A stretch of 64,000 nucleotides of DNA from Nanobdellota archaeon (GCA_038045945.1 JBBSXC010000001.1:52592-116591); one strand, 5' to 3'. Numbered from the stretch's first letter, positions 7,811 through 56,026 are shown. The notes: generated by a model from the letters alone, not told the origin. Translations and numbers: made by a program.

Positions 7811-7812
7811 TT

Positions 7813-12279: not shown

Positions 12280-12282
12280 ATA

Positions 12283-12778: not shown

Positions 12779-12921
12779 TTTTTGTTTTTTATACGCTCCG
12801 CTAAGTTTTAACCTAAAAGAGCGTTGAAGTCACATGGACTATTAAGTTTAAAAGTCTTGTCGCAAAACAATATATCCGTTCAGAAGCATGGAGTCACGCA
12901 AGAATAAAAGTTTAAAGCCCT

Positions 12922-13716: not shown

Positions 13717-13740
13717 GTTCTTTAGTTTTATAAGGAAAAT

Positions 13741-14391: not shown

Positions 14392-14392
14392 T

Positions 14393-14656
14393 TTAGCTTA
14401 AATCTGAAAGCTGTTTTTTAAAATAATAAACTAGGGCAGCTAATAATCCCCCTGAAAATATAATCCATCTAAAAAGTTCGTTAGCTCCTACAAATTGTGT
14501 AATTATTACTGAAACAACATAAAGCCCTAGTAAAAATAAGACCGGTAAAATTATGAATCTAAAAACTGCATTATTGTATGCATCCTCAATATCGAATCTA
14601 GCCATAAAAACATATAATCCTCTTGATTTTAAACCTTTTTGTATCATCTTATACAC
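14393..14656 (-). CDS. small membrane protein
   Basis: 87 aa, 2 TM helices. Confidence 0.4.
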   Translation of the reverse strand: MYKMIQKGLKSRGLYVFMARFDIEDAYNNAVFRFIILPVLFLLGLYVVSVIITQFVGANELFRWIIFSGGLLAALVYYFKKQLSDLS

Positions 14657-14693
14657 TTAGTTTAAATGAGATAAATAGCTCAAATTAAAATTC

Positions 14694-14735
14694 ATATCCC
14701 TGAAAGATGCACTGATAGATTCACGCCACAACCGG
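14694..14735. repeat. att-like partial copy of tRNA-Glu(CTC) 3' end plus downstream flank (direct repeat, copy A)
   Basis: about 42 nt, 36 identical, versus 16814..16855, which spans the 3' end of the intact tRNA-Glu gene. Confidence 0.6.
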
Positions 14736-14775
14736 CAAGTTGCCTATTTTGTGATTTTAAGGGGCGTACTTTTTA

Positions 14776-15531
14776 TCATTTTTTAGCCAAACCCCATAGT
14801 AGTCTAGCATATGTTTTAAAAGAATCTGCAACATCTTGGTTTTGTATAACTACGGAAAATGACTTCCCCTTATTAATACCGATAGTAATAGTGTCAGCAT
14901 ATATCTCCATCCACGCATGAGTGATTAACTCTTTTGGCATATAACGAACCTCACTTAATGGATAAGAAGCAGATTCTTTACCAAAAGGATACCGAGCATA
15001 ATCATTATACAGATAATAACATTTAATTCCCTTTTTGTATCGGCGTTTGTGATAGTCTGAAAAGTATGGAGTTAGCTTATCATAAGGAGTTCTTGCAATT
15101 CCTATAATCCACATTTCATCACCTTTTTTCATAATATTTAGGGTTCTTTCTCTAGCCGTTTGAATGCCCTTTAGTCCATCATAAACTTGGGCTGTCTCAG
15201 AAGTAAGAGCTGTTTTGTGCTTAGATTCTAACTGAGGAATAATCTCTTGAAGTTCATGTTCTTGTTGTTTAAGTCTGTCTTGCTTTTCTTTATTGTATAC
15301 TAAGAGTCTTTCGGGGTTAGTGGCTTTGAAACGTTTAATATCGTCCTTGATAATATGAGAAACAAGACCTTTCTTAGCTAAACGACTTAAAATTTGGTAC
15401 ACTTTAGAGAGAGAAACTCCAGATTCTTCAACAATCGGTCCAGAGGTGACTTCTCCTAGGCCTATAAGAGCAAGGTAAACTTTTATTTCTCCCGAAGTAA
15501 GACCTAATTCACGTAATGGTTCGATATTCAT
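14776..15531 (-). CDS. TrmB-family wHTH transcriptional regulator
   Basis: N-terminal LTSGEIKVYLALIGLGEVTSGPIVEESGVSLSKVYQILSRLAKKGLV. Confidence 0.55.
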   Translation of the reverse strand: MNIEPLRELGLTSGEIKVYLALIGLGEVTSGPIVEESGVSLSKVYQILSRLAKKGLVSHIIKDDIKRFKATNPERLLVYNKEKQDRLKQQEHELQEIIPQLESKHKTALTSETAQVYDGLKGIQTARERTLNIMKKGDEMWIIGIARTPYDKLTPYFSDYHKRRYKKGIKCYYLYNDYARYPFGKESASYPLSEVRYMPKELITHAWMEIYADTITIGINKGKSFSVVIQNQDVADSFKTYARLLWGLAKK

Positions 15532-15597
15532 TATACCCCACTAAGGGGGAAATAGTATTTATATATTTAGTATCTCCTTATAGTAGTAAATAATAAC

Positions 15598-16800
15598 ATG
15601 AAACAGCAAATCATAAAACTCCTAGACCCAAGGGAAGTGCAAGAGGAGTTCAATTTAAGGGCGAGAAAGAGAAAAGGTATAGCCAAGGTGCTCTCAAATC
15701 GTTTCTCAAATTACATTAATGAAAAGTTTGACAGTGATGTGAAAACTCTCCTCAATAAGCACTTCAAAGAATCCCATTTTAAGAATGTTCTAGAAGTAGG
15801 AGTCGGGATAGGAAGAATAGCCCCATTCTTTATAGAAAGATCAGAAACGTTCTACGGAGTGGATTTTTCTGAAGGTATGCTTAATGAAGCTTCAAAAAAC
15901 CTTTCTCCTCATAAAAATATAGAATTAATCTATGGAGATGCTTCAGAGTTAGAATTCAAAAAGGGATTTTTTGACCTTGGAATACTCAGCCTTATACTTA
16001 AGCATAACAATGATAAGCAGACAAGAAAGATTATCAAAAATATGAAAAAATGGTGTAAAAAAATACTTCTTATAGAACATGTAATCGGAGGGGCTCTTGG
16101 AAGTAAAATAGCAGTTATAAGAACTTTTGATTGGTATAAAAGAGAGTTCTTACCAAAAAGAATAACAATTCATGAATCATTTCACAGAGATAAAGATTGC
16201 ATTGTCTTCTGTTTTTTTGAATCATCTTTACAAACTTTTTTACTTATAAGACACGGAGTTGTAGAAGTCCCTCATGAAAATTTCATTTATGGTCAAAGAC
16301 ATAACCCTCCTCTATCTATGAAAGGCAAAAGAGAAATGAGGGAGTTAGCTAGAAAGAAAAGTCTTTTTTTTAATTCTATAGATCAAGTTTATTCTAGTGC
16401 TCTTCATAGGTCACTTGAGACTGCACATCTACTCTTTAGAAATAAGCCTATTATTCAAGATGAAAGACTTAAAGAAATAGATTTTGGTGCTTATAGTGGC
16501 GTAGATATAAGGGATCATCCTAAAGTCTTTTCTTCTAAGTACAAATCTCTACTAAAACATAATCAACCTTTCACTGATGGAGAGAGTATTCTTAGTGTAA
16601 AAAAGAGATTAAACCTGTTTAATAAAGAGATTCTTAAGAGTGGAAAATCTTCTTTTTGCATTGTTTCTCATCAATGGCTTCTAAACTGCTACATGAAGCT
16701 ACTCTTGCATACTAACGAGGAATTTATCTTTGAACAAGGAAAGATAACACAGATTATCTTAGAAGATGGAGAAGTAATTTCCTATAAACACAATGTCTAA
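15598..16800 (+). CDS. fusion protein: class I SAM methyltransferase + histidine phosphatase (phosphoglycerate mutase family)
   Basis: LEVGVGIGRIAP (motif I), VDFSE, FDLGILSLIL; C-terminal LLIRHGVVEVPHEN...ALHRSLETAHLL (RHG motif of branch-1 histidine phosphatases). Confidence 0.7.
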   Translation: MKQQIIKLLDPREVQEEFNLRARKRKGIAKVLSNRFSNYINEKFDSDVKTLLNKHFKESHFKNVLEVGVGIGRIAPFFIERSETFYGVDFSEGMLNEASKNLSPHKNIELIYGDASELEFKKGFFDLGILSLILKHNNDKQTRKIIKNMKKWCKKILLIEHVIGGALGSKIAVIRTFDWYKREFLPKRITIHESFHRDKDCIVFCFFESSLQTFLLIRHGVVEVPHENFIYGQRHNPPLSMKGKREMRELARKKSLFFNSIDQVYSSALHRSLETAHLLFRNKPIIQDERLKEIDFGAYSGVDIRDHPKVFSSKYKSLLKHNQPFTDGESILSVKKRLNLFNKEILKSGKSSFCIVSHQWLLNCYMKLLLHTNEEFIFEQGKITQIILEDGEVISYKHNV

Positions 16801-25303: not shown

Positions 25304-25389
25304 ATTTATAAAGGTTATGCAGAGACTATGTGCTTTTGAGGAGATAAATCCTTAAAAGTGTCTTTTACTCTTTTTTTGTCGTGACTTGG

Positions 25390-26817
25390 ATGTTGTTTAA
25401 CTCTTTGCAGTTTTTGGTGTTTTTCTTAGTTGTTGTTTCATTATACTTTATTCTTCCTCATAAGTATCGTTGGTTTTTGTTGCTTGTTTCTAGTTACTAT
25501 TTTTATATGAGTTATCTTCCAGAGTACGTTCTTGTTTTGTTGTTTGCTACAGTCATGGACTATTTTTTGGCTATTAGGATAGCTTCAATTAAGGATTATA
25601 CTAAGAGAAAGTTATTCCTTGTTTTTAGTATTTTTTCTAATCTTGGTTTATTGTTTGTTTTTAAGTACTTTAATTTTTTTGGTGATTCTTTAAGGTCTCT
25701 TCTTAGTTTGGCTTCTTTGGATGTTAGTATTCCTTATAGCTCTTTGATTCTTCCTTTGGGTTTGTCTTTTCATACTTTTCAGAGTTTGGGTTATATGATC
25801 GAGGTTTATAGGGGTGAGATTAAACCTCAGAAGCATTTTGGTATTTTTGCTTTGTATATTGCTTTTTTTCCTCAGCTTGTTGCTGGGCCTATTGAGAGGG
25901 CTAAGAATCTTATTCCTCAGTTTTATGTGAGTCACAAATTTGATTTTTTGAGAATTGTTGGTGGTCTTAAGATTGTTCTTTGGGGTTTTTTCTTAAAGGC
26001 TGTTCTTGCTGACCGTTTGGCTGTTCCTGTTGATTATGCTTTCACTCATCCTTCTTGGCCTGGTGGTATTTCTCTTCTTTTGGCTACAATATTTTTTGCT
26101 TTCCAAATCTATGGCGATTTTGCTGGTTATACTTTCATTGCTATTGGTACTGCTAAAATTATGGGTTTTTCTTTAATGGATAATTTTCGCAGGCCTTACT
26201 TGTCTGGGTCTTTCGTTGATTTTTGGCGTAGGTGGCATATTTCTTTGTCTTCTTGGTTTAGGGATTACTTGTATATTCCTCTAGGTGGTAGTAAGAAGGG
26301 TTTTGTTAGGACTCTTGTTAATTTGTTTATTGTTTTCTTACTTAGTGGTTTGTGGCATGGTGCTGCTTGGACTTTCGTTATTTGGGGTATTATTCACGGA
26401 TTATTAGTAATTGGTAATACTTTAGTTATCAAGCTTAGTGGTAAGAAAAAGAAGGTTAAGCATAATTTTGGTACAGGCATTATTAATTTCTTTAAGTCTG
26501 TCTTTGTTTTCTCTTTTGTTTGTTTTGCTTGGATTTTTTTCCGTGCTAATTCTGTTTCTGATGCTTTAATAATCATTAAAAGGATTTTTTCTTGGACTGC
26601 TCCTAAAATTATTACTTTGAGTTTGACTTCTATTGATTTGTCTATTGCTGTTTTCTTAATTTTGTTTGTTATGATTGTTGATTTCTTTACTGAGAAAAGG
26701 TTTTTTGGCGATAAGACTCCTTGGTGGGCAGAATTATTGTTTTATCTTTTGGTTTTTTGGTTTATTATTATTTTAGGCTCCTTTGGGGGTAGGGAGTTTA
26801 TTTACTTCCAATTTTAG
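25390..26817 (+). CDS. MBOAT-family membrane O-acyltransferase (AlgI/DltB-like)
   Basis: FFPQLVAGPIERA and WRRWHISLSSWFRDYLYIPLGG (catalytic His region); ATG at 25390, ORF track starts at GTG 25381. Confidence 0.85.
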   Translation: MLFNSLQFLVFFLVVVSLYFILPHKYRWFLLLVSSYYFYMSYLPEYVLVLLFATVMDYFLAIRIASIKDYTKRKLFLVFSIFSNLGLLFVFKYFNFFGDSLRSLLSLASLDVSIPYSSLILPLGLSFHTFQSLGYMIEVYRGEIKPQKHFGIFALYIAFFPQLVAGPIERAKNLIPQFYVSHKFDFLRIVGGLKIVLWGFFLKAVLADRLAVPVDYAFTHPSWPGGISLLLATIFFAFQIYGDFAGYTFIAIGTAKIMGFSLMDNFRRPYLSGSFVDFWRRWHISLSSWFRDYLYIPLGGSKKGFVRTLVNLFIVFLLSGLWHGAAWTFVIWGIIHGLLVIGNTLVIKLSGKKKKVKHNFGTGIINFFKSVFVFSFVCFAWIFFRANSVSDALIIIKRIFSWTAPKIITLSLTSIDLSIAVFLILFVMIVDFFTEKRFFGDKTPWWAELLFYLLVFWFIIILGSFGGREFIYFQF

Positions 26818-26818
26818 T

Positions 26819-27979
26819 ATGGACAAAAGAATGTTTTTCTTATCGGTAATTGTTGTTTTGTTATTTTTAATGCCTTTGATTGTTCAGTTACTTTTGCCTT
26901 TTGGTTATGATAGTTTTCGCATTTGGGATTCTGTTTCTAGGGCTTTTATTAATTCTGATAAGCCTTTTTATTCTAATATTAACATTAGTAGGGTCGAGGT
27001 TGGTGATTTGGCTCATGGTACCGAGTTTGAGGTTAATAGGTCTGTTACTTGGTTTACTGATAGTAGAGGTTTTAGGACGCAAGAGTCTATTGATGATTTT
27101 TATGATGTTGTTATTCTTGGTGACTCTACTATTGCTGGTGCTGGTTTGAGTCAGGAGGATATGCTTTATTCTGTTATTAGTAATAAGACTGGTTTGAGGG
27201 TTTATTCTATGGGTCAGGTTGGTATTAATCGTTTTTTGAGTGATTCTCGTTTTGTTCTTAATCCTCCTAAAGTTTTGGTTTTTGGTGTTCTTGAGAGGAA
27301 TATGAATAATATTGATGTGTTGAATAAAAGTGTTATTGTGAGGAGTAAATACTTTTTTCCTATTAAGGAGAGGCTTGTTGATTTGCTTGATCGTTCTTTA
27401 AAACTTAATTTTATTAGAAAGAAGATTTCTCCTTCTATTTCTTCTGATAATTTAGCTGTTAATAATAGTACTAGGATGGTTTTTTATGATGTTTCTCTTA
27501 CTCAACAATTAACTAATTCTTTTGTTGTTACACAGTTGGTTGATGAAATTTCTTCTTATAATGATTTGTTAGCTGATCGTAATATTACTTTGATATTTTT
27601 GCCTGTTCCTAATAAGGAGACTGTTTATTATGATGATTTGCCTCAGAATTTTAAGAATAGGTATTCTAAGTCTAATTTTACTTCTCATATTTCTTTCTTA
27701 ACTAATAATGCTGGTGTTAAAACTGTTGATTTATTACCTATTTATAATAAAGAAAAATCTCAGAGTTTTTTGTATCAGTTGGATGATACTCATTGGAATA
27801 GGGATGGTGTTTTGATTGCTGCTGATGAGGTTATTAAACTGATGAATGTTTCCGACATTAATCACTCTGTTTTTAAGAAGCCTATTGTTAGTGATTTGGT
27901 TTTTGAGTTGTTAGTTTATGAGGCTTTTTTCTTACTTTTCGTTCTTGCTTTTCTTCTTAGAATTTTTGATCGTAAATGA
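26819..27979 (+). CDS. AlgJ/AlgX/DltD-like (DHHW-motif) periplasmic partner of MBOAT
   Basis: N-terminal TM, LDDTHWNRDG (D-x-H-W motif); ATG at 26819 immediately after MBOAT stop. Confidence 0.6.
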   Translation: MDKRMFFLSVIVVLLFLMPLIVQLLLPFGYDSFRIWDSVSRAFINSDKPFYSNINISRVEVGDLAHGTEFEVNRSVTWFTDSRGFRTQESIDDFYDVVILGDSTIAGAGLSQEDMLYSVISNKTGLRVYSMGQVGINRFLSDSRFVLNPPKVLVFGVLERNMNNIDVLNKSVIVRSKYFFPIKERLVDLLDRSLKLNFIRKKISPSISSDNLAVNNSTRMVFYDVSLTQQLTNSFVVTQLVDEISSYNDLLADRNITLIFLPVPNKETVYYDDLPQNFKNRYSKSNFTSHISFLTNNAGVKTVDLLPIYNKEKSQSFLYQLDDTHWNRDGVLIAADEVIKLMNVSDINHSVFKKPIVSDLVFELLVYEAFFLLFVLAFLLRIFDRK

Positions 27980-29976: not shown

Positions 29977-30969
29977 TTATCTCTTAGTTTCAACACTATC
30001 AAAGAGAGCACTCAAACTATCACCCTTAATTGTTCTGTAAATAGCTTCACCAAATAATGGAATCAGAGATATGGTTTCAAGATTGGGACTTCCACTGTTT
30101 ACTAGGGTATCAGAAACAAATAGTTTGTCTAGTGTAGAAAATCTTTCTAGTCCTGCGCTGAATAGTCCGTGAGTTCCATAAGCATAAACGCTTTTAGCCC
30201 CATTCTCTCTCAAAGATGCTTCAGTCATGGCTATAGTCCCACCAGTATCAATCATGTCATCAACAATTAGACAATTCCTGTCTTTAACATCACCTATTAT
30301 TACAACTTTATCAACAACATTATCTTTAAGTCTAATTTTGTCACCTATAGCAACATTCACTTCTAGACCGCTGGCCCTTAGCCTCTTAGCAAGACTTCTA
30401 ACTCTTTTAGCCCCACCCATGTCCGGTGAAACAACAGCTAAATCCTCAAAAATTAATGGGTGTTTACTTCCCAGATAATCGATTAGTGTTGGAAAAGAAT
30501 AAAGATTATCAAAAGGAATATCAAAAAATCCTTGCATTGCAGGGTTATGAAGATCAACGGTCATTGCTCTGTCAGCATAAGTAGAGATCATCTTAGCAAG
30601 AGCTTTAGCATTAACACTAACCCTACTTTCATCCTTTCTTTCTTGACGAGCGAAACGAGTATAAGGAAGAACAACATTTATTTCTTCAGGCGAAGAGAAC
30701 TTTAGTGCATCAAGGACAAAGTTAAGTTCTGTGTACCAGTCTGATGGGGACTTGTTAGAATCATGAATTAGATAACATTGCCTTCTGCGAACGTTCTTAG
30801 CAATACGAAGTTTGAATTCTCCATCCTTAAAGTCTTCTCTTTTGACAGTGACTAAGTCTACCTCAAAATCTCTTTTTGGCTTATATAGAAGGTGATTATA
30901 AACACCGATAGCAAAATCGTAACCTTTACTGTTAGGATCGGCAATTATTGCAGCATCACCATTTTCCAT
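29977..30969 (-). CDS. prs: ribose-phosphate pyrophosphokinase (PRPP synthetase)
   Basis: N-terminal Prs domain, PRPP-binding loop VIIGDVKDRNCLIVDDMIDTGGTI. Confidence 0.85.
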   Translation of the reverse strand: MENGDAAIIADPNSKGYDFAIGVYNHLLYKPKRDFEVDLVTVKREDFKDGEFKLRIAKNVRRRQCYLIHDSNKSPSDWYTELNFVLDALKFSSPEEINVVLPYTRFARQERKDESRVSVNAKALAKMISTYADRAMTVDLHNPAMQGFFDIPFDNLYSFPTLIDYLGSKHPLIFEDLAVVSPDMGGAKRVRSLAKRLRASGLEVNVAIGDKIRLKDNVVDKVVIIGDVKDRNCLIVDDMIDTGGTIAMTEASLRENGAKSVYAYGTHGLFSAGLERFSTLDKLFVSDTLVNSGSPNLETISLIPLFGEAIYRTIKGDSLSALFDSVETKR

Positions 30970-37903: not shown

Positions 37904-38041
37904 TGAGCCTATGCGGATTTGAACCGCAGACCTCCGGCTTTCTTAGCACGTATATGCCACTAAAGCATTAGTTCGCTCAAGTTGCTTGAGAGAACAACGT
38001 CTTATAAGACCGGCGTTCTAACCGGGCTGAACTATAGGCTC
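37904..38041 (-). tRNA. tRNA-Ile (anticodon TAT = UAU) containing a ~63-nt intron at the canonical 37/38 position
   Basis: acceptor GAGCCTA/TAGGCTC (perfect), D-arm GTTC-AGCCCGGTTA-GAAC, anticodon stem CCGGT...GCCGG with loop CTTATAA interrupted after position 37, T-arm TGCGG-TTCAAAT-CCGCA. Confidence 0.7.
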
Positions 38042-41845: not shown

Positions 41846-43882
41846 TTAGTGGTATTCGTTTCTTGCTTTGAATGAGTCTATGAATTTGCTGTTGTCGTCT
41901 CTGTTTACTACGCTGTTTAGTTCGTATGCTTCTGTGTCTCCTTTAACTATCTTTTTGACTTTTGTTGCTGATGCTACTCTTCTTTGCATTTGTTGTGATA
42001 GTAATACTTCGCTTGTTGCTCCGTCTGCTAATTTTTTTGCTAGGCTTAGTGTTTGTCCTAGGCTTGTGAATTTTAGTTTTTTTGTTTGTTTGTCTATTTC
42101 TACTACTAGGTCTCCGTGGTTTATTCCTATTCCGAATTCTATTTTGTTTGCTGGGTTTGATTTTGAGTTGTGTAGTGTTAGTACGGATTTTATTTCTTGT
42201 GCTATTATTAGGCTTGTGTTTTCTGTTTTGTATGTTTTCGTTGCGCTTGGTGCTAGTATTCCTATGATGAATTCTTCTGCTTGGTATACTGATCCTTTAA
42301 CTTTTGTTATTTGTGCTATTATTGTTTCTAGTGCTGTTTTGTAGTAGTCTTGTTTTTCTATTTTTTGTTTGTTTTTTATTTTTATTGCTATTATTGAGCA
42401 TGGTTCTTTAACTCCCCTTATTACTAGTGAGTGTTCTGCTTCTTTTGGTGTTACTCTTCCTATTGTTACGTCTGAGCTTCTTATTGTGCTTATGTTTGGT
42501 GCTTCGTAGTTTGTGTTTCCGTACTTGTTTCCTTTTACAAGCCTACTTAATGCTGCCAGTGAAGGCATGTAGTGTATGAATTTTTGTTTTCCTAAGCCTT
42601 TTGATACTCCGAATATGAATAGTCCTAATACGCCTAGTATGAATAGCCATACTAGCGAGTATCTTGTTATTATTGATGTGCTGTCTGCTACGTCGATAAG
42701 TCTTACTGCATTACCTGTTAGTGATATTCCTGATGCTGAGAATTTTCCTACCCCATCTGTTGCTGATACGTCGTAACTTCCGTCTGGTGCTTGTAAACTG
42801 TATATTGCGCTTTCACCAACTCCTAATTCTAAGTCTATTATTTCTTTGTTTGGTCCTATTCCTACCTCAACGCTTTTTTTGTATGGTACGTTTCCCGTAT
42901 TTGCTATTTTTAGTGTTGTGTTGACTATTTCGAATGTTACTTTTTCTACTTCTGGTACGTAGAAGAATCGTTTGTTGCTTAGTGATTCTACTTTTACTAC
43001 TATTGTTCTGTATCCTGGTGTTTCGTTTATTGGTAAATCAATCATTATGTCTTCTCCCGAGTTTACTATTTGGTCGTTTATTTTTGTGTCTTCTCCGTTT
43101 AGTAATGAGTATCTTGCTTGTGTTGTTATTTCTTTATCTGTTTGGTCGTATACTAATATTTTGAATTTGTATGGTGTTCCTGGTGTTGCTTCTTGGTTTT
43201 CTATTGATACTTCTATTTTTCTTGCTTCTTGTTTTACGAATATGTTGCTTTCTAGGTTTGCGTCGTTTATTATGTTTCCTTGTTTGTCTTTTTCGTAAAC
43301 TTTTGTTTTTATTGAGTATGTTCCTGATGCCATGTTTTGTGGTAGGCTGAAGTTGTATACTGCTACTCCGTTAATTACTGGTAAGTCTAGTGATATTCCT
43401 GCTTCTGCGAATGTTACTGATGCGAATCCGTTTATTGCTTTTCCGTTTGCTTTTGTTGCGCTTATTCTTATGATTATGCTTTCGCTAGGCCCTACTTCTT
43501 TTTTGTCTATTTCTGCGTATGCGTCGGTGTGGTCGCTTATTGTGAATGTTTGGCTTTGAACTGATGATGTTCCGTATGTTGCTGCTATGAAGCATGATCC
43601 TTTTAGTGGTCCTATGAATGAGTTTGATAAAGTGAATGATTTTCTTACAATTGTTGATGATAATATGTCGTGTGTTATTACTACTTTGTTTTGTTCGCAG
43701 TTAAGACTCATATCGAAGAAGTTGTCTGATAAGCTGTCCACTGTTGCTGCTAGTGTTATTTCGTCGCCTAAGTTGTAAATTGCTGCTGGTTGTTCTAAGA
43801 ATACTTCAGCTCGCACAGCGCTAACTGTTAGTAATAATGTTACTGCTAAAACTATTAATAATACTGTTGATGACTTCACCAT
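41846..43882 (-). CDS. receptor-like surface protein: signal peptide, large extracellular region, single TM, cytoplasmic degenerate class III nucleotidyl-cyclase homology domain
   Basis: N-terminal MVKSSTVLLIVLAVTLLLTVSAVRA; TM LVWLFILGVLGLFIFGV; C-terminal FGIGINHGDLVV...LGQTLSLAKKLADGATSEVLLS matches cyclase (R)IGIHTG..VVG...GDTVNLAARLE..G.ILVS, but metal-binding Asp positions are replaced (IIAIKIKN). Confidence 0.55.
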   Translation of the reverse strand: MVKSSTVLLIVLAVTLLLTVSAVRAEVFLEQPAAIYNLGDEITLAATVDSLSDNFFDMSLNCEQNKVVITHDILSSTIVRKSFTLSNSFIGPLKGSCFIAATYGTSSVQSQTFTISDHTDAYAEIDKKEVGPSESIIIRISATKANGKAINGFASVTFAEAGISLDLPVINGVAVYNFSLPQNMASGTYSIKTKVYEKDKQGNIINDANLESNIFVKQEARKIEVSIENQEATPGTPYKFKILVYDQTDKEITTQARYSLLNGEDTKINDQIVNSGEDIMIDLPINETPGYRTIVVKVESLSNKRFFYVPEVEKVTFEIVNTTLKIANTGNVPYKKSVEVGIGPNKEIIDLELGVGESAIYSLQAPDGSYDVSATDGVGKFSASGISLTGNAVRLIDVADSTSIITRYSLVWLFILGVLGLFIFGVSKGLGKQKFIHYMPSLAALSRLVKGNKYGNTNYEAPNISTIRSSDVTIGRVTPKEAEHSLVIRGVKEPCSIIAIKIKNKQKIEKQDYYKTALETIIAQITKVKGSVYQAEEFIIGILAPSATKTYKTENTSLIIAQEIKSVLTLHNSKSNPANKIEFGIGINHGDLVVEIDKQTKKLKFTSLGQTLSLAKKLADGATSEVLLSQQMQRRVASATKVKKIVKGDTEAYELNSVVNRDDNSKFIDSFKARNEYH

Positions 43883-44002: not shown

Positions 44003-45145
44003 ATGACTGTTTTTATGGTAAAGGGTGAATCAATGAAGGTTACTCCTTATGAAGCAAAAGGGGAAATAGACTATGATCAATTAGTAAAACAGTTCGGTGT
44101 TGAGAGGATTGATCAAGATTTAATGAAGAGGATAGAAAAGAAGGCAGGTGAGCTACATTTCATGCTTCGCAGAGGAGTCTTTTTTGCGCATAGAGACTTA
44201 AAATTTGTACTTGAAGAGTACGATAAGGGAAACAAGTTTTATCTTTACACTGGGAGAGCTCCAAGTGGACCAATACATTTAGGGCATCTACAACCTTGGA
44301 TTTTTACTAAGTGGTTACAGGATACTTTTGGTGTAGAGTTATGGTTTCAATTCCCTGATGAAGAAAAATTTTTGTTTAAACCAGAGATGAGTTTTGAGGA
44401 TGGACAAAAATATCTTAATGATAATATGTTGGACATTATAGCTTTAGGTTTTGATCCTAAAAAGACTCACTTCTTGATAGATACTAAGCATGCAAATGCT
44501 ATGTACAAAGAAGCATGTAAAGTAGCAAAAAAGATTACTTTTAACATGGTAAGGTCATCATTCGGATTTGATGAAAGTGATAATATAGGATTAATATTTT
44601 ACACTAGTATGCAAGCTGTTCCAGCATTTTTGCCTTCGGTAATCGCAAAAAAGAATATTCCTTGTTTGATTCCTCACGCAGTTGACCAAGACGTCCACTT
44701 TAGGTTAACTAGGGATATTTTGCCAAAACTAGGTTATTATAAACCTGCAAGTATTCAATGCGTATTTTTGCCGCCTTTACAGGGGGTTGCTGGAAAGATG
44801 AGTTCATCACAAAGCAGTGAAGCAATACTAACTACTGATACACCAAAGGAAGTTGAGCGTAAGATTAACAGGTACGCTTTTAGTGGGGGAAGAGATACCA
44901 TTGAGGAGCATCGTAAACTTGGAGGAAATCCTGATGTTGATGTTTCTTACCAATATTTGAGGATGCTATTAGAAGATGATGATAAGAAACTAAAAAAGAT
45001 TCATGATGATTATAAGAGTGGAAAGATGACAACAGGCGAATTAAAGAAATATACTATTGATAAAATTAATTCTTTTTTAGCAGTTCATCAAAAGAAGCGC
45101 GAAGAAGCAAAAAAGGTTGTTGACAAATTTATTTGGAAAGAATGA
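44003..45145 (+). CDS. trpS: tryptophanyl-tRNA synthetase, archaeal/eukaryotic type
   Basis: YLYTGRAPSGPIHLGHLQPWIFTKWLQDTFGVELWFQFPDEEKF and AFSGGRDTIEEHRKLGGNPDVDVSYQYL are near-collinear with human WARS catalytic core; KMSSS. Confidence 0.9.
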   Translation: MTVFMVKGESMKVTPYEAKGEIDYDQLVKQFGVERIDQDLMKRIEKKAGELHFMLRRGVFFAHRDLKFVLEEYDKGNKFYLYTGRAPSGPIHLGHLQPWIFTKWLQDTFGVELWFQFPDEEKFLFKPEMSFEDGQKYLNDNMLDIIALGFDPKKTHFLIDTKHANAMYKEACKVAKKITFNMVRSSFGFDESDNIGLIFYTSMQAVPAFLPSVIAKKNIPCLIPHAVDQDVHFRLTRDILPKLGYYKPASIQCVFLPPLQGVAGKMSSSQSSEAILTTDTPKEVERKINRYAFSGGRDTIEEHRKLGGNPDVDVSYQYLRMLLEDDDKKLKKIHDDYKSGKMTTGELKKYTIDKINSFLAVHQKKREEAKKVVDKFIWKE

Positions 45146-45146
45146 A

Positions 45147-45785
45147 TTATTTTTCTTTATAAAAGACGTGTTTGAATTCTTTAGCATTTTTTATTTCATC
45201 AAAAGTTTTTCTTTCCATTAGTTTTGAGCCAGCCCATTTAGGACTAATAGCTAAAGTGTGATAATGAGTTTGTCCAAGATTATAAGAATTGGAATTTTCT
45301 CCTAAGACAGTATCTGCAGCTGTTAAGCATTCTTCCCATGATTTCGAGTCATATCTTTGTGGGTCCATAAGTTTTTTCTTATTAGGATCATTATCGTTAA
45401 AGCATGAGTATTGCCACTCTTTAAGTATAGAATCCTTTATTGTTTCCCCATTCCACTTTTTCCCATCTTTAGCTCTATTAATTGCCGTGTAAGCAATAAC
45501 CCTTTTTTCTTCTCTAGAACAGTTTCTTGCTTCTCCAAAAAGCATTCTAGCAATTATTACTTTATCACTATCATTTTTAAAATCATTAGTGCTATAATCT
45601 ACTTGTTTGGCTTTTTGTTTATCACTTTTTGGTAAATCAAATAATTCTAAGCGTTCTTCTAGTTGCGAGTTATTTGTTATTCCCTTAGGATTTTCTTCAG
45701 TATAAGTTTGGCTTTTATCAAAATAGTATATAAGCGCACTTAGACCTATTATTCCCCCAGCAACTATTTTTTGTCTAGTGTTCAT
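45147..45785 (-). CDS. SleB/CwlJ-like cell-wall (peptidoglycan) hydrolase domain protein, membrane-anchored
   Basis: N-terminal TM; IIARMLFGEARNCSREEKRVIAYTAINRA resembles Hydrolase_2 (SleB) core. Confidence 0.55.
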   Translation of the reverse strand: MNTRQKIVAGGIIGLSALIYYFDKSQTYTEENPKGITNNSQLEERLELFDLPKSDKQKAKQVDYSTNDFKNDSDKVIIARMLFGEARNCSREEKRVIAYTAINRAKDGKKWNGETIKDSILKEWQYSCFNDNDPNKKKLMDPQRYDSKSWEECLTAADTVLGENSNSYNLGQTHYHTLAISPKWAGSKLMERKTFDEIKNAKEFKHVFYKEK

Positions 45786-45797
45786 TTTTGTCTAAGC

Positions 45798-46046
45798 TTA
45801 TAGATGCGCTGCCTCCATTCTTCTATGCAATTTTTCTTTAGTTAATCCTAAATTTATTGCTTCGTCTAATAATTTTTCGTCAGCTAGGATAATAGCAGCA
45901 GCTAATTCTTTACCCTCAGGAGAATAATTATTACCTGCATTATTAGAGAAGTCTGTTCTTAGTGCTTCAAGGTCTATACTTCTTTGAGCGATTATTAAAG
46001 CGTACTGAGGTTTTTCTTTTAGTTTAGAGAAGTATTCTGGTTCCAT
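45798..46046 (-). CDS. hypothetical protein
   Basis: 82 aa; A-rich codon usage unlike T-rich neighbours. Confidence 0.35.
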   Translation of the reverse strand: MEPEYFSKLKEKPQYALIIAQRSIDLEALRTDFSNNAGNNYSPEGKELAAAIILADEKLLDEAINLGLTKEKLHRRMEAAHL

Positions 46047-46327
46047 TATTGATTGCTCCCTTCATAATTTTCTTCGTTAATTTTTCCAATAGGTTTGCAT
46101 TCGTCAAAAACTATTTCTTCAGCTTCAAGAACGCCTAAATCACTAGCTAAAGCAACAACTCCCCTTTCTCTTCTTTCAAGTTCTCTTGTAAGCATCCTGC
46201 TCTTATGGTGATTCAAAACTCCTGAACGGTAGCGTCCTTCAACTTGGTTATTAGCTACTTCAGCTGCATTGACGACAGGTCTAAATGCAGCAGCAGCATA
46301 CAAGACTTCTTTATAGTCAACTCTCAT
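46046..46327 (-). CDS. hypothetical protein
   Basis: probable start MRVDYKEV at 46327; stop overlaps next start (ATGA). Confidence 0.35.
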   Translation of the reverse strand: MRVDYKEVLYAAAAFRPVVNAAEVANNQVEGRYRSGVLNHHKSRMLTRELERRERGVVALASDLGVLEAEEIVFDECKPIGKINEENYEGSNQ

Positions 46328-46427
46328 AAAAACTACAGGAAAAAGAACTATATAAATCTTACTGATAGTGTATCTTAGTAGTAGTAACAAAAGGAAGATT
46401 TATATAGTATTGATGAATCAATGATTT

Positions 46428-46853
46428 ATGGTTAAAAAAGAAGTTTTTGATTGTGGATGTTACAGAGTATCGGGAAACTTTTATGATGACAATGACGAAA
46501 CTATAGCAACAGCTGTGGCTAGTGCTGCAAGGGAAGCTGAAGTAGCATCAAGAAATGCTAGTCAAAGACCAAAAGATTTGGACTTAATAGCGGGTAGTTT
46601 AGATGTCAGATTCAGAATTAGAGGATTTAGGGGGGAAGGAAGTCCTAGGGAATGGAGAACTGCTCCATTGAGTAATTTATCACATGCAGCCGGTTTTACT
46701 CGTGAGAAAGCAATAAGAGACTTTGGAAGAGCAAACTACCAGTTATTGGAAGATCCATTAATGCCACTACAAGAACACATATATGGGGACGGGATGTACA
46801 GAGCTACTCTAGAAAAAGCGCAATTAGCTGTAAAGTTAGAAGAAATGAGATAA
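46428..46853 (+). CDS. hypothetical protein
   Basis: 141 aa; YRVSG...ETIATAVASAAREAEVAS...DVRFRIRGF (faint dodecin-like pattern, not asserted). Confidence 0.35.
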   Translation: MVKKEVFDCGCYRVSGNFYDDNDETIATAVASAAREAEVASRNASQRPKDLDLIAGSLDVRFRIRGFRGEGSPREWRTAPLSNLSHAAGFTREKAIRDFGRANYQLLEDPLMPLQEHIYGDGMYRATLEKAQLAVKLEEMR

Positions 46854-46917: not shown

Positions 46918-48216
46918 ATGGCTGATTTTAAGTTTAATTTTGGTGATTTTGTTAAGATTAAGGATAATAATGAATTTTTAGAGGGCGTTATACTTGAGAG
47001 TCCTGATAGCGAGTTTTATTTGTTGAAGCTTAATAGTGGTTATAATATTGGTGTTAGAAAAGAGAATATTGTTTCAATAGAGGTCGTTAATAGGAGGGTT
47101 GTGGAAAAAGTTGTTGATGTTAAGAAAAGTGTTGATAGTGGTCTTCCTAAAGTTGATATTATTATGACAGGTGGCACTATTAGTAGTCGTCTTGATTATA
47201 GAACTGGTGGTGTTACTAGTCTTACAAGCCCAGAGGACTTTTTTCGTTTTTACCCAGAAATTTTTAAGATTGCGAGCGTTAATAGGGTTGTTGTTCCTTT
47301 CATGAAGTTGTCAGAGAACATGGAGATTAAAGATTGGAAGATTATTGGTGAAGAAGTTGAGAAGAGTATGAATAATCCTGAGGTTGATGGTGTTATTGTT
47401 ACTCATGGTACTGATATTTTACATTATACTTCTTCTGCTTTATCTTTTTTCTTTCCTAAGCCTAATAAGCCTGTAGTTTTGACTTTTAGTCAGAAGAGTA
47501 CTGATAGGGCTTCTTCTGATGCTTCTTTGAATTTGCAGTGTGCTGCTAGACTTGCAGTATCAAATATTGCCGAGGTTGTTATTGTTGGTCATTCTAGTAC
47601 TAATGATGATTTTTGTTATGCTCTTCTGGGAACTAAGGTTAGGAAGATGCATTCTACTTCTAGAGATGCTTTCAAACCTGTGAATATTGATCCTTTAGTT
47701 AAGGTTTATTCTGATAGGATTGAGAAGTTGAATTATTTTAGAGAGAGACCTTCTAAGTCTGATAAGAGTGAAAAATTAAAGGGCGATATATTTATTAGTG
47801 AAAAGGTTGGCCTAATAAAGTTTTATCCTGGTCAAAGTTTTGAGATACTTGATTATTATTCTAAGATTTGTGAAGCTTTAATAATTGAAGGTGTTGGCGT
47901 TGGTAATGTTCCTGTTGAGGGTAATAATTCTTGGATTCCTTCTATTAAGAAGGCTATTAATAATGGTATGATGATTTTTATGACTTCTCAGACTGTTTTT
48001 GGTAGGACAGAGCCTTATGTTTATTCTACGGCTAGAGATTTGCAAAAAGCTGGCGTGATTTTTTTAGAGGATATGTTGAGTGAGGCTGCTTTTGTTAAGC
48101 TTTCTTGGGTTCTTGGTAATAAGAATTGGAATAAGGATAAAGAAACTATTAAGAAGAAGATGCTTGAGAATGTTAGTGGTGAGATTAATAATAGATTGCA
48201 GTTAAGGGGGGATTAG
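46918..48216 (+). CDS. gatD: Glu-tRNA(Gln) amidotransferase subunit D
   Basis: asparaginase-type DIIMTGGTISS motif, VVTHGTDIL, 432 aa with N-terminal extra domain typical of GatD. Confidence 0.85.
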   Translation: MADFKFNFGDFVKIKDNNEFLEGVILESPDSEFYLLKLNSGYNIGVRKENIVSIEVVNRRVVEKVVDVKKSVDSGLPKVDIIMTGGTISSRLDYRTGGVTSLTSPEDFFRFYPEIFKIASVNRVVVPFMKLSENMEIKDWKIIGEEVEKSMNNPEVDGVIVTHGTDILHYTSSALSFFFPKPNKPVVLTFSQKSTDRASSDASLNLQCAARLAVSNIAEVVIVGHSSTNDDFCYALLGTKVRKMHSTSRDAFKPVNIDPLVKVYSDRIEKLNYFRERPSKSDKSEKLKGDIFISEKVGLIKFYPGQSFEILDYYSKICEALIIEGVGVGNVPVEGNNSWIPSIKKAINNGMMIFMTSQTVFGRTEPYVYSTARDLQKAGVIFLEDMLSEAAFVKLSWVLGNKNWNKDKETIKKKMLENVSGEINNRLQLRGD

Positions 48217-48218
48217 TT

Positions 48219-48758
48219 ATGTCTGTTAAGATTACTTATTTTGTTCATGGTACAACCACGGATAATGAGGAGGGGCTTTCTACTGGCCAAAATGATGGAG
48301 AGTTATCTGAACTTGGAGTAAAACAATCAAAGGATTTGCCAGGACAAGTAAAAGATAAGTCTTTTGTTGAAGTATTCTCCTCTGATTTAAGGAGGGCTAT
48401 TGATTCTTCAGAGATTTCTTTTGGTGAGAATCGCCAGATAAGAATTGATGTGAGATTAAGAGAGTGTGATTATGGCAAGCTTAATGGGTCTAAGGAAGAA
48501 AAAGTTGATTATTCAGAACACATTGATAACCCATTTCCTGATGGAGAATGCTTAAAGGATGTTGAGGAAAGAATGAGGAACTTTTTAAAATTCTTGAAAA
48601 GAAATTATTCTGGTAAACATATAGCGATTGTAGCTCATAAGGCACCACAATTAGCTTTGGAAGTTTTAACAAATAATAAGACCTGGAAGGAAGCCATTGA
48701 GCAAGATTGGAGAAAAGTTGGTAAGTGGCAACCAGGATGGATTTATACTGTTAAATAA
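48219..48758 (+). CDS. histidine phosphatase (phosphoglycerate mutase-like) family protein, non-canonical RHG motif
   Basis: ITYFVHGTTTDNE (His retained, Arg replaced by Val), SSDLRRAIDS; C-terminal AHKAP. Confidence 0.6.
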   Translation: MSVKITYFVHGTTTDNEEGLSTGQNDGELSELGVKQSKDLPGQVKDKSFVEVFSSDLRRAIDSSEISFGENRQIRIDVRLRECDYGKLNGSKEEKVDYSEHIDNPFPDGECLKDVEERMRNFLKFLKRNYSGKHIAIVAHKAPQLALEVLTNNKTWKEAIEQDWRKVGKWQPGWIYTVK

Positions 48759-49559: not shown

Positions 49560-50702
49560 ATGACAGACCTAAATAAAAGCCATAGGATTATGGGCACGAT
49601 TATATATGGACTTGAAAGAGGAGTGGAAGGTAAAGAAGGATTCGAAGCATCTTTATCAAGACTTCATCTAGCCTTACTGAGCGGCCATAAACCCGAGTAT
49701 AGCTCCAAATCAGATTTTGTTAATGGAATTGTTGCTGACATGGAAAAATATTGTGGACTAGTTAAGGCTAGAAGAAATATCGTTGTTGAGGGCTCTAGCA
49801 GAGAGATGGCTACTGAAACTGAAGCACTAGAAAGCTTGAAGTATGCTGTTAAGATCGCTAAAGATTACTTAACGCCTTTTATGAGAAGGAGATTTGATTT
49901 TTCTGATAAGGTTTTTCACGATATCCATGACCTGGGAATAGCCTATGTAAACGCTGTAACTGACAGTGCTTCAGAAGAGTATATTCCTCGTGAAGCAACT
50001 GTTGATGCTAAATTAAGATCAACTAATCTTGCTAAGCAAGCTTCAAGAACGAGGAGAACTTATGCAGCAGACCATGTAAAGAAGGCAGATTTAGAAGACA
50101 CATTGTCAGTTTTGTCTGATTCAGTTTCAAAGAATACCACTGAATCTTATATGAGGCCTTATGAAAATGTTGTTGTTACTCCTAAGAAAGTTTCTAAAAA
50201 AAGAAAGTTTACTGATAGGTTGATTGATGGACTAACTACAAGCTTAGGTACCGCTGAGAAATTAGAGTTTGTTCCAGATGTTATATTCCCTATAGCTACA
50301 GGTGGCGTGGAGTTAGGTATCGATGTCGCCATTGTTTATGAAAATTTTGGTTTTGACCCAATTGTTTATCCTGTAATGTTCTCTATGAAAACTAGAAAGC
50401 ATAGGCACCCTTGGACTGCAAATGATGAAGAATTTTTAAGAACTAGAAATCATGAGGGAGAAAAGTTTTTAATAACTGAAGACTGGGTTACAACTGGTAA
50501 CACTGTTAGAGGAGTAATAAACGAATTAGAATCCAGTTTTCCTAAAGAAATAAGAGTGGCTACAATAAAGAGAGATCCAAAAATATCTAGAATGCCTATA
50601 CTTGATAAATACAGATTCTATGTTGGCCAGTGGATCCCTTATAGAGGAAGCAAAACCGATTCAATAGCGGATCAGGCAGCACCTGAAAGTAAGTCTGAGT
50701 AG
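49560..50702 (+). CDS. two-domain protein with C-terminal type I phosphoribosyltransferase (PRTase) fold
   Basis: KFLITEDWVTTGNTVRGV matches PRPP-binding motif (VLIVDDVLTTGGT); N-terminal ~220 aa unassigned. Confidence 0.5.
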   Translation: MTDLNKSHRIMGTIIYGLERGVEGKEGFEASLSRLHLALLSGHKPEYSSKSDFVNGIVADMEKYCGLVKARRNIVVEGSSREMATETEALESLKYAVKIAKDYLTPFMRRRFDFSDKVFHDIHDLGIAYVNAVTDSASEEYIPREATVDAKLRSTNLAKQASRTRRTYAADHVKKADLEDTLSVLSDSVSKNTTESYMRPYENVVVTPKKVSKKRKFTDRLIDGLTTSLGTAEKLEFVPDVIFPIATGGVELGIDVAIVYENFGFDPIVYPVMFSMKTRKHRHPWTANDEEFLRTRNHEGEKFLITEDWVTTGNTVRGVINELESSFPKEIRVATIKRDPKISRMPILDKYRFYVGQWIPYRGSKTDSIADQAAPESKSE

Positions 50703-52987: not shown

Positions 52988-53347
52988 ATGATAGCGCTTT
53001 ATGATCCTTTGAAGAAGGAGTTAGGATTCTATATTGATGAAAAAAGAGAATCTGCCAGGTCATATCTTGAGGGTCCATTAATTGTTAAAGGAATGGAGAA
53101 TGATGGAGTTTTAAGAAGAGCCGCAATAAGTTTTCCTCGTGATGCTATGTATAGCGAATTTCAAACTAATTCAGAATTTTTTTCTGACAAGCCTCGCGAA
53201 CTAACTCAGGTAAGTCTTACATTAACTCCTTGGGCTAGAACAAGACTTGATGAAAAAAAGGCGATTATTCCAGTGAAAAATCCGGGTATAGAGGTGATTG
53301 TTAGTTTAGAGCCTGATATGAGTTTATTATCATCATCTGCCGCTTAA
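52988..53347 (+). CDS. hypothetical protein
   Basis: 119 aa. Confidence 0.35.
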   Translation: MIALYDPLKKELGFYIDEKRESARSYLEGPLIVKGMENDGVLRRAAISFPRDAMYSEFQTNSEFFSDKPRELTQVSLTLTPWARTRLDEKKAIIPVKNPGIEVIVSLEPDMSLLSSSAA

Positions 53348-54691: not shown

Positions 54692-56026
54692 ATGGTTAAA
54701 AAAGTAGAAAAAGTTTCTGTTGATACTCACAGCGAATCATTCATTAGTATTTCTGATGCTATCAAGCAAGGTTCTGGTCGTGTTTCTATTAGAGGTTGGG
54801 TTTATCGTGAGAGGGATGGAAAAGAATTAAGATTCATAGTCCTAAGAGACTCAAGTAATATAATACAGTGCGTGTTGAAAAAGGAAAAGTTTGAAAAACA
54901 ATGGGGAGAGATAAGTAAAATAGGAATTGAAAGCTCACTAGAAATAGTTGGGGAAATAAAAGCAGACGCTCGAGCACCAACAGGTTACGAAATATCAGCA
55001 GAAAAAATAATAATAGTGCAAATAGCTGAGGATTTCCCCATTAACAAAGATTTGAACGAGGAGTTGCTTGGAGACAGAAGGCATTTGTGGCTTCGTAGTA
55101 GAAAGATGACTTCTATTATGAAGATTAGAAGCAGGTATATACAGGCTAGAGAAGCATTCTTTCATAAAGAGGGATTTTATCGTTTTGATACTCCTATACT
55201 TCAACCAACACAAAGCGAAGGTGGAAGTACAGTTTTTGAAGTAAAATATTATGATAAAAAAACGTTTTTAGCCCAAACATGGCAGTTATACGGCGAATCA
55301 GCAATTTTCGCTCTTGAAAAAGTTTACAATATGGGTCCAACTTTCAGGGCTGAGAAGAGTAATACTTCAAGACATTTATCTGAATTTTGGATGGCAGAAG
55401 TAGAAGTGGCCTGGTGGGGTCTTAAAGAAATATCTGAGTTTGCAAAAAAAGAATTAAAACATTGTATAAGCATAGTGGTAAAAGAATGTGAGGAAGAGTT
55501 TAAGATATTAGGAGTGGATGCAAAAAAATTGTTAGAGATGACAAAGAAAGAGTGGCCTACAATTAAGTATCGTGATGCACTAAAATTAATAAAAGAAAAA
55601 GATGGGATGACAGTACCGTTCGGCAAGGATTTAAGGACAATTGAAGAACAAACAATAATGAAACATTTTGATACTCCTGTTGTTGTTACTCATTATCCTA
55701 AAGAAATAATGGCTTTTTATAAGCCGAGTGACCCAAAAAGTCCTGATGAAGCATTATGCTTTGATATGTTAGCTCCACAGATAGGCATAGAGATAGTTGG
55801 AGGAAGCCAAAGAGACTTGAATGTTGAGGAGATGTCAAAAAAACTAAAAGCTGATGGTGAAGACCCAAAAAATTATCAGTTTTATTTTGATACTAGGAAG
55901 TATGGAAGTGTGCCTCATTCAGGATACGGAGTAGGAATCGAGAGGGTAATACAGTGGATTTGTGGTCTTGAAAGTATTAAGGATGCTATTGCCTTCCCTA
56001 GGACTATGAATAGGACAACTCCTTAA
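54692..56026 (+). CDS. asnS: asparaginyl-tRNA synthetase
   Basis: FRAEKSNTSRHLSEFWMAEVEVAW (AsnRS-specific SNTSRHL.EFWM), C-terminal FPRTMNRTTP. Confidence 0.85.
   Translation: MVKKVEKVSVDTHSESFISISDAIKQGSGRVSIRGWVYRERDGKELRFIVLRDSSNIIQCVLKKEKFEKQWGEISKIGIESSLEIVGEIKADARAPTGYEISAEKIIIVQIAEDFPINKDLNEELLGDRRHLWLRSRKMTSIMKIRSRYIQAREAFFHKEGFYRFDTPILQPTQSEGGSTVFEVKYYDKKTFLAQTWQLYGESAIFALEKVYNMGPTFRAEKSNTSRHLSEFWMAEVEVAWWGLKEISEFAKKELKHCISIVVKECEEEFKILGVDAKKLLEMTKKEWPTIKYRDALKLIKEKDGMTVPFGKDLRTIEEQTIMKHFDTPVVVTHYPKEIMAFYKPSDPKSPDEALCFDMLAPQIGIEIVGGSQRDLNVEEMSKKLKADGEDPKNYQFYFDTRKYGSVPHSGYGVGIERVIQWICGLESIKDAIAFPRTMNRTTP

Follow-up and report, generated by a model that had tools for sequence, protein, structure and literature searches.

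A SleB/CwlJ-like Hydrolase_2 protein at a conserved chromosomal position in Pacearchaeota-type archaea, and its candidate substrates

What use would an archaeon have for a hydrolase of the SleB/CwlJ type? We know of no murein made by archaea of the group considered here, and no murein-synthesis Pfam family is found in the precomputed annotations of the stretch under study, 64,000 nucleotides from a Nanobdellota archaeon (hereafter the window), together with about 4 kb of its flank. A minus-strand gene of the window was nevertheless predicted, from the DNA alone, to encode a membrane-anchored peptidoglycan hydrolase, perhaps acquired separately from its surroundings and possibly directed at a bacterial partner or prey.

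Host, fold and architecture

That the host is an archaeon is plain from the window itself, with its GatD (46918-48216), GatE, Spt4, Rpb7, S24e and S27e genes and a tRNA gene interrupted by a long intron. The closest syntenic genome is the Pacearchaeota MAG RIFCSPHIGHO2_01_FULL_37_14, with identities of 73% for the neighbouring class I Trp/Tyr-type tRNA synthetase (called TrpRS here), 69% for GatD and 81% for a GTPase, and the host is thus a DPANN archaeon of the Pacearchaeota type. A 445,132-bp Hainich groundwater contig (ENA ERZ1292629, 0.1-um fraction), present in two samples, encodes the identical hydrolase protein, as does an independent Logan assembly in which the flanks are the same. Bacterial contamination or a chimeric contig was considered and rejected, since independent assemblies share the archaeal flanks (GatD, TrpRS, GatE).

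The translation contains both motifs by which the hydrolase core had been recognised, ARMLFGEARN and IAYTAINRA. Residues 91-192 match Pfam PF07486 (Hydrolase_2) at 35.9 bits, above the gathering score of 27 (E=1.2e-8), covering profile positions 4-88 of 100, and the protein also matches the phage endolysin family phrog_938 in PHROGs (E=2.8e-12); it has no match in NCBIfam or PADLOC. A single-sequence search of PDB sequences returned spurious repeat-protein matches only, and a profile of the family found SleB weakly (E=0.066), so that a comparison of folds was needed to settle the family. The AlphaFold2 model, built from 29 sequences, shows a compact domain with pLDDT >95 throughout residues 61-212, and Foldseek results for it are consistent with the SleB catalytic-domain fold. 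The best matches among viral models (BFVD) are phage SleB-domain "cell wall hydrolases" (E=3e-7, 20-24% identity) from phages that infect Pseudomonas, Cronobacter, Agrobacterium, Salinibacter and E. coli, which indicates that the SleB fold is used on ordinary vegetative murein and not on spore cortex alone.

Although the aligned sequences share only 33-60% identity with the query, Glu85 is unchanged in 29 of 29 relatives, QYSCFN is invariant, and the full set of invariant positions in this alignment comprises A79, M81, G84, E85, E93, R104, L121, Q125, S127, C128, F129 and N130, followed by Y175, P182, W184 and H206. In the profile-to-PDB alignment the FGEAR of the hydrolase sits on the YGESRGE of SleB, Glu on Glu, and the catalytic Glu of SleB is reported to be essential (PMC12331253, PMC11148199). 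By profile score, modelled fold and conservation of Glu85, the predicted catalyst in a GE[AS]R motif on the first helix, the protein is therefore a Hydrolase_2 member in sequence, fold and predicted catalytic residue, and this part of the original prediction stands. Catalytic activity and lytic-transglycosylase chemistry would be expected from the same pattern of residues; for CwlJ, the chemistry has had no unequivocal demonstration (PMC12331253).

The claim of a membrane anchor is likewise borne out, in the sense that the N terminus carries a hydrophobic segment predicted to make the protein membrane-anchored or exported. Residues 7-22, IVAGGIIGLSALIYYF, which follow the basic stretch MNTRQK, average 1.65 on the Kyte-Doolittle scale in a window of 17 residues. 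An equivalent is found in nearly all relatives: of the 90 that share the GE motif, 59 reach at least 1.6 in a window of 17 residues at the N terminus, and the remainder mostly fall at 1.2-1.6. The basic residues ahead of the helix suggest an N-in topology with the domain outside. In comparison with phage signal-anchor-release (SAR) endolysins, in which a weakly hydrophobic N-terminal TM rich in Gly, Ala and Ser precedes the muralytic domain, the value of 1.65, in a family mostly at 1.2-1.9, fits a SAR domain but also an ordinary signal peptide or anchor; in some family members the signal peptide may be cleaved. Residues 23-68 have pLDDT 50-65, lack secondary structure in the model, are predicted to be disordered and cannot be aligned across the family, and in the GE-motif relatives the hydrophobic segment and the ARM..GE helix are separated by 19 to 94 residues, with a median of 55. 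We take the catalytic domain to be exported and to sit on a flexible tether. No second Pfam domain is present at E<=0.1, and no peptidoglycan-binding domain is recognisable.

Table 1. Features of the hydrolase locus, with positions counted from the first nucleotide of the window
Feature	Position	Strand	Basis
678-aa signal-peptide/TM protein whose cytoplasmic C-terminus weakly resembles a cyclase (context only)	41846..43882	-	weak profile matches
TrpRS, class I Trp/Tyr-type tRNA synthetase	44003..45145	+	PF00579, E=3.6e-25
Hydrolase gene, 212-aa predicted exported Hydrolase_2 (SleB/CwlJ-like) protein	45147..45785	-	ATG-to-stop ORF, stop included
Predicted SleB-type catalytic domain, residues 69-212	45150..45581	-	
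Predicted catalytic Glu85, GAA codon, motif FGEAR	45531..45533	-	conservation and alignment to SleB YGESRGE
Variable low-complexity putative tether between anchor and domain, residues 23-68	45582..45719	-	pLDDT, alignment
Putative N-terminal hydrophobic signal-anchor or signal peptide, residues 7-22	45720..45767	-	Kyte-Doolittle, family comparison
82-aa ORF, no known family, 12 nt upstream of the hydrolase gene	45798..46046	-	also called in ENA
93-aa ORF, first of an apparent three-gene unit	46046..46327	-	ORF call, ENA
Archaeal TATA-box-like element TTTATATA, candidate promoter	46349..46356	-	about 25 nt before the ATG of the 93-aa ORF
141-aa divergent ORF, no known family	46428..46853	+	ORF call, ENA

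Composition, neighbourhood and history of the gene

The suggestion of separate acquisition had been drawn from codon style, the hydrolase gene and three small genes being A-rich against a T-rich style in most of the window. This contrast is a consequence of gene orientation, the two strands differing strongly in composition. The plus strand is richer in T than in A and in G than in C at third codon positions, whichever way a gene points, with a median plus-strand AT3 skew of -0.49 and a cumulative GC skew that climbs monotonically over the window; the 36 plus-strand genes average A3 0.22 and T3 0.51, and the 34 minus-strand genes A3 0.55 and T3 0.19, so that 34 of the 70 genes are A-rich and the style does not serve as a foreign mark. 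Among its minus-strand peers the hydrolase gene is, if anything, poor in A (A3 0.43, below 29 of the 33 others), and the proposed statistical comparison found it unremarkable in GC3 (0.20 vs 0.26 +/- 0.04, z = -1.55) and in GC (0.31 vs 0.35, z = -1.15).

There is a finer structure in the skew. The block at 44003-46853, which includes TrpRS, has almost no AT3 skew, unlike its neighbours; the departure is significant for the hydrolase gene (A3:T3 against the pooled minus-strand genes, Fisher p=2.6e-10) and the corresponding relaxation is significant for TrpRS (p=1.9e-9). About 15 of the 70 genes in the window have similarly low skew, spread over several other blocks. An inversion was rejected as the explanation, the order and orientation of the genes being those of the related Pacearchaeota MAG. 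Most relatives show weaker strand skew than the window does. One possibility is that the low-skew blocks were imported from low-skew relatives; in any case, the mosaic gives no support for a bacterial origin of the hydrolase gene.

The gene neighbourhood was examined in 50 unique loci of the hydrolase family, pooled from three collections. In the window, the TrpRS and hydrolase genes converge, their stop codons 1 nt apart. Half of the loci (25 of 50) have a TrpRS gene downstream of the hydrolase gene, and where at least 1.5 kb of flank is available it is convergent and within 1.5 kb in 15 of 27. Beyond it, 13 of the 21 unique loci whose flank extends to 4 kb or more have a homologue of the 678-aa protein (26-31% identity); in the window this protein has a weak match to Guanylate_cyc (E=0.0055) and one to PycC (E=2.7e-4). 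On the other side the arrangement is looser: of the 26 loci whose flank is long enough, 11 have ThrRS upstream and 2 have GatD. The slot of the hydrolase gene, convergent with TrpRS and often followed by a membrane protein of 650-700 aa, is common to many divergent genomes of Pacearchaeota, Woesearchaeota and Nanoarchaeia, and the synteny is kept even where the TrpRS proteins are only 33-47% identical. A position kept across such deep divergence argues for long residence of the gene in the lineage. As judged from gene order, then, the hydrolase gene is vertically maintained, a probable part of the surface toolkit of Pacearchaeota and Woesearchaeota, and a recent foreign island is not favoured.

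Conservation of position does not extend to the upstream ORFs, which vary from locus to locus. The three small genes had been described as downstream of the hydrolase gene, a misplacement: with the hydrolase gene on the minus strand, the 82-aa and 93-aa ORFs precede it on that strand, and the 141-aa ORF points away from them on the plus strand. In the order of the transcribed strand, the 93-aa ORF (46327 to 46046) overlaps the 82-aa ORF (46046 to 45798) in a TAATG, stop on start, and 12 nt separate the latter from the hydrolase gene. The position of TTTATATA, taken with the archaeal TATA consensus, suggests a leaderless transcript of 93-aa ORF, 82-aa ORF and hydrolase gene. Searches of Pfam, NCBIfam, PHROG and PADLOC gave no match for any of the three small ORFs. 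The other 49 unique family loci contain no homologue of them, and no conserved upstream partner, immunity or regulator gene either. On this comparison of loci, the small ORFs are best described as lineage-specific fillers of a variable upstream slot, not conserved partners.

The distribution of the family is in keeping with an archaeal history. A word-indexed search gave 97 relatives of about 130-310 aa, all but 3 of which have a precomputed PF07486 match. A profile search of 1.84 billion cluster representatives gave 226 at E<=1e-30, 3,314 at E<=1e-10 and 12,043 at E<=1e-3; the 226, which are clusters at 50% identity, are taken here as the subfamily. All close relatives with an organism name are archaeal (Pacearchaeota, Woesearchaeota, Nanoarchaeia or simply "archaeon"), and most of the named relatives belong to one of the first three. 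A peptide scan of GTDB species genomes with two motifs found 18 archaeal loci at 32-58% identity and only 4 loci in Firmicutes, at 26-30%. In IMG/VR viral contigs there was no member of the archaeal subfamily, only distant relatives at 26-30% identity. The subfamily thus appears, from these searches, to be a sizeable, divergent and archaeal branch of Hydrolase_2. Its members already carry automatic database labels, "cell wall hydrolase" or "CwlJ-like"; in the literature, we found no paper describing the family in DPANN archaea.

Pairwise p-distances of the hydrolase do not follow those of TrpRS (Mantel r=-0.02, p=0.54), the TrpRS identities falling into two groups (about 33-47% and 58-74%) while those of the hydrolase lie on a plateau at 40-58%; for the 678-aa neighbour the correlations are weak (r about 0.24, p about 0.02). 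We do not read this as a sign of transfer, though the hydrolase gene may have been exchanged among related archaea by recombination via the conserved flanks. The same lack of correlation, together with the relaxed skew of the block and the orphan character of the three small ORFs, could be read as the signature of a recent bacterial island comprising the hydrolase gene and its small neighbours. We give that reading very little weight: the codon contrast is explained by orientation and GC and GC3 are ordinary, the low-skew block takes in a housekeeping TrpRS gene and has counterparts elsewhere in the window, the gene keeps the position and orientation seen in its relatives, and its closest relatives, 40-60% identical, are archaeal without exception, the bacterial loci of the motif scan being more distant. 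Of the case originally made for separate acquisition, only the small ORFs still look lineage-specific; the hydrolase gene belongs to the conserved slot convergent with TrpRS.

Close to negligible, in our view, is the chance that the protein serves an integrated virus or other mobile element as its endolysin. It does match PHROG endolysin families, and the weakly hydrophobic N-terminal helix ahead of a SleB domain, in about 200 aa, resembles phage proteins. Yet there are no viral genes nearby, the neighbours being GatD, TrpRS, GatE and other housekeeping genes; the small neighbours lack PHROG matches; the IMG/VR relatives are distant; and an archaeal virus would find no murein to lyse.

Candidate substrates

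With modest confidence, we lean towards bacterial murein, cut in its glycan backbone, as the substrate of the hydrolase. It is the likeliest candidate because the archaeon is not expected to make murein of its own. The original prediction pointed to a bacterial partner or prey, and by analogy this remains attractive, murein being the most economical target and the idea matching published proposals. Two precedents show the fold attacking vegetative bacterial walls where its owner is no spore former: a SleB-like T6SS effector is toxic in the E. coli periplasm and is inactivated by mutation of its Glu (PMC11148199), and ladybird cwh proteins of PF07486 limit the growth of B. subtilis (PMC7807722). 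GH23 lytic transglycosylase proteins of Pacearchaeota and Woesearchaeota have been interpreted as targeting bacterial hosts or prey (PMC8204110, PMC9723730), and bactericidal peptidoglycan hydrolases have been demonstrated in other archaea (PMC12352652). In outline, the N-terminal anchor and the flexible tether of about 45 residues would hold the exported enzyme at the archaeal cell surface, with a reach that we estimate at roughly 15 nm at most (about 0.35 nm per residue), and the C-terminal SleB/CwlJ-fold domain, its Glu intact, would cut the MurNAc-GlcNAc bonds of bacterial peptidoglycan, either at a site of contact with a bacterial host or prey or in scavenged wall debris.

Some features of the protein and its locus speak against a murein role. 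There is the missing peptidoglycan-binding domain, which Strock et al. needed for a confident call of a peptidoglycan hydrolase, and there is the core-like position, unlike that of the patchy, plasmid-biased archaeal hydrolases of the weapon type (PMC12352652). SleB itself depends on the muramic-delta-lactam of spore cortex. Moreover, a tethered enzyme under an S-layer might act on the envelope of its own producer. The missing domain, the core-like position and the tether are also the grounds for a different proposal, that of a substrate-switched housekeeping autolysin which remodels the archaeon's own envelope or matrix glycan (at gaps for pili or archaella, in division, or in exopolysaccharide turnover): its gene would be expected to be syntenic and not patchy, its product would stay tethered to the producer's membrane, and a murein-binding module would be dispensable. 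Surface polysaccharide as such is not far to seek, for an MBOAT and AlgX-domain pair in the window suggests one that is O-acetylated, and in one relative a GT2 glycosyltransferase gene lies just upstream. We nonetheless regard action on an own glycan as unlikely. No archaeal substrate is known for the SleB fold, the characterised relatives (SleB, phage endolysins, the T6SS effector and ladybird cwh) all act on murein (PMC11148199, PMC7807722), and the conserved neighbours are tRNA synthetases rather than genes of envelope synthesis. A variant in which the carrier archaea build a MurNAc-like polymer of their own carries hardly any credence with us.

Murein might also be bound and not cut, the domain serving as a non- or weakly catalytic adhesin that attaches the archaeon to bacteria. 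Tethering at the surface through a long flexible linker would suit such a role, and the GH23 proteins found in these lineages have been suggested to attach to bacterial walls (PMC8204110). The invariance of the catalytic Glu and its surrounding motif over deep divergence, which is the pattern that purifying selection on catalysis gives, makes this quite improbable. Pseudo-enzymes usually lose the general acid.

Still less probable is the pseudomurein of methanogen hosts (Methanobacteriales) as target. Woesearchaeota have been suggested as partners of methanogens. Moreover, pseudomurein biosynthesis shares ancestry with that of murein (PMC10117817). Members of the hydrolase family come from marine, lake and groundwater metagenomes, settings with no obvious presence of such methanogens. 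Pseudomurein is built with beta-1,3-linked N-acetyltalosaminuronic acid and resists enzymes of the lysozyme type, and we know of no SleB-type enzyme that cuts it.

If bacterial murein is indeed the substrate, a further step can be taken, which we offer tentatively and with more doubt than conviction: that the clade of Pacearchaeota and Woesearchaeota carrying the gene depends on bacteria, not archaea, as physical hosts or prey, with the enzyme opening the sacculus at the site of contact. Both groups rank with the most abundant of the uncultured groundwater archaea, and what has been published in favour of bacterial hosts draws on giant GH23 proteins that are present only in some genomes. The hydrolase is small and easily expressed, its predicted active site is intact, and its position is kept in a deep clade of genomes described as strongly reduced; it would, if the reading is right, mark cross-domain episymbiosis at the sequence level and help to find the hosts.

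Comparison with known systems

The Bacillus enzymes CwlJ and SleB (PDB 4FET, 4F55), after which the fold is named in our description, are only 16-17% identical to the archaeal hydrolase. The owner of the latter forms no spores, and the substrate cannot be a cortex of its own. A single domain is the CwlJ-like trait of the archaeal protein; compared with SleB proper it lacks PG_binding_1, its residues 1-68 being predicted anchor and disordered linker instead, and relative to both it adds the N-terminal anchor and long tether and has the subfamily-specific motifs QYSCFN and DGKKWNG. Nor is there a ypeB partner, as for SleB, or a gerQ partner, as for CwlJ; the neighbours are TrpRS, GatD and non-conserved ORFs. 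Nearer in build are the phage SleB-domain hydrolases (Pseudomonas phage pf16, Cronobacter phage GAP31, phrog_938), which are of similar size (about 180-210 aa) and fold and match the archaeal protein over nearly its full length, N-terminal region included. These act on vegetative murein from outside the cytoplasm and are encoded on phages of bacteria, whereas the archaeal subfamily is chromosomal, syntenic, absent from IMG/VR and unaccompanied by a viral lysis cassette.

Two systems show a PF07486 or SleB-fold protein turned to other ends. In T6EC3 (PMC11148199) a SleB-fold domain is used against the peptidoglycan of other cells, with toxicity that depends on the equivalent Glu; T6EC3 reaches its target through a T6SS and has an immunity protein as partner, while the archaeal hydrolase has neither an injection system nor a conserved partner. 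An immunity protein would not be needed, because the producer has no murein. The ladybird cwh genes (PMC7807722) are a case of a horizontally acquired PF07486 gene kept in a murein-free lineage with its catalytic Glu retained, but there the host is eukaryotic, the function immune and the proteins soluble or secreted.

The closest parallels in setting are archaeal. The GH23 (SLT-type) proteins (PMC8204110, PMC9723730) come from the same lineages, are extracellular and are predicted to cut the murein glycan, but they reach 3000 aa (fam00969) as against 212 aa for the hydrolase, which belongs to Hydrolase_2 and has no SLT match; the small Hydrolase_2 family is absent from these papers. The archaeal peptidoglycan hydrolases of Strock et al. 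2025 (PMC12352652) combine muralytic domains with export signals and are prominent in Nanoarchaeota, and halobacterial M23 examples were shown to kill bacteria; PF07486 is found neither in the text nor in the supplements of that survey. Those proteins have a catalytic domain with at least one wall-binding domain, and their genes are patchy and enriched on plasmids, whereas the hydrolase has a single Pfam domain and its gene sits in a syntenic position on a 445-kb chromosomal contig. A core-like, fixed distribution of this kind argues for a standing relationship with bacteria, in contrast to the arms race in which patchy, plasmid-borne weapon hydrolases take part. No new category is called for, as archaeal murein-cutting enzymes are already established and the relatives of this protein already labelled as cell wall hydrolases; by analogy, the hydrolase fits the proposals published for DPANN archaea on the strength of the GH23 proteins and the archaeal peptidoglycan hydrolases.

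Variation beside the hydrolase gene

Two genes for class I tRNA synthetases of the Trp/Tyr type (PF00579) lie in the window, and one of them adjoins the gene for the SleB/CwlJ-like hydrolase. Across relatives, this adjoining copy falls into two identity groups, at about 33-47% and 58-74%, a split that points to either in-place replacement or a pair of deep lineages. On the other side of the hydrolase gene lie small ORFs of 82, 93 and 141 aa, which have no family match and no homologue in any of the 49 other unique loci of the hydrolase family. In relatives, the slot upstream of the hydrolase gene is filled by different small ORFs, and it is thus a variable insertion slot. A Pacearchaeota MAG, the closest syntenic relative, has two ParE-toxin/antitoxin pairs inserted into its GatE-GatD-hydrolase-TrpRS neighbourhood (positions 3122-3633 and 7806-8297 of loci L004/L005); these pairs are absent from the window, with which that neighbourhood is otherwise collinear.

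Features of the window discussed here
Feature	Coordinates	Strand	Remarks
PF00579 synthetase	7813-8847	-	
PF00579 synthetase	44003-45145	+	adjoins hydrolase gene
82-aa ORF	45798-46046	-	
93-aa ORF	46046-46327	-	
141-aa ORF	46428-46853	+	
678-aa protein	41846-43882	-	signal peptide, long extracellular region, one TM helix, cytoplasmic C-terminus
MBOAT and ALGX-domain genes	25381-26817 and 26783-27979	both +	adjacent pair
tRNA gene	37904-38041	-	138 nt, intron of ~65 nt; Rfam
Low-skew blocks	11530-16800, 29977-30969, 44003-46853, 48219-48758, 49560-50702, 52988-53347, 54692-56026		

A homologue of the 678-aa protein adjoins the TrpRS and hydrolase genes in 13 of the 21 loci with enough flank, although the identity is only 26-31%. 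The C-terminus of the 678-aa protein bears a weak resemblance to nucleotidyl cyclases of class III (hits to Pfam Guanylate_cyc at E=0.0055 and to PADLOC PycC at E=2.7e-4), and the protein may be a surface receptor-cyclase conserved in this lineage.

Strand asymmetry and the blocks that break it

Third codon positions show a very strong strand asymmetry over the whole window, with T>A and G>C on the plus strand whichever way the genes point; the median plus-strand skew of A against T at these positions (AT3) is -0.49, and cumulative GC skew is monotonic. This asymmetry is broken by sharp-edged blocks with near-zero or reversed skew, which include housekeeping genes. Comparison with a related MAG ruled out inversions; import by recombination and gene-specific selection are both possible origins.

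An intron-bearing tRNA gene and an MBOAT/ALGX pair

The tRNA gene, detected by Rfam and missed by ARAGORN, carries an intron, as is typical of archaea. The MBOAT/ALGX pair is not expected for a reduced DPANN genome, and it hints at an O-acetylated surface polysaccharide; in bacteria, the same arrangement serves O-acetylation of alginate (AlgI/AlgX) or peptidoglycan (PatA/PatB).
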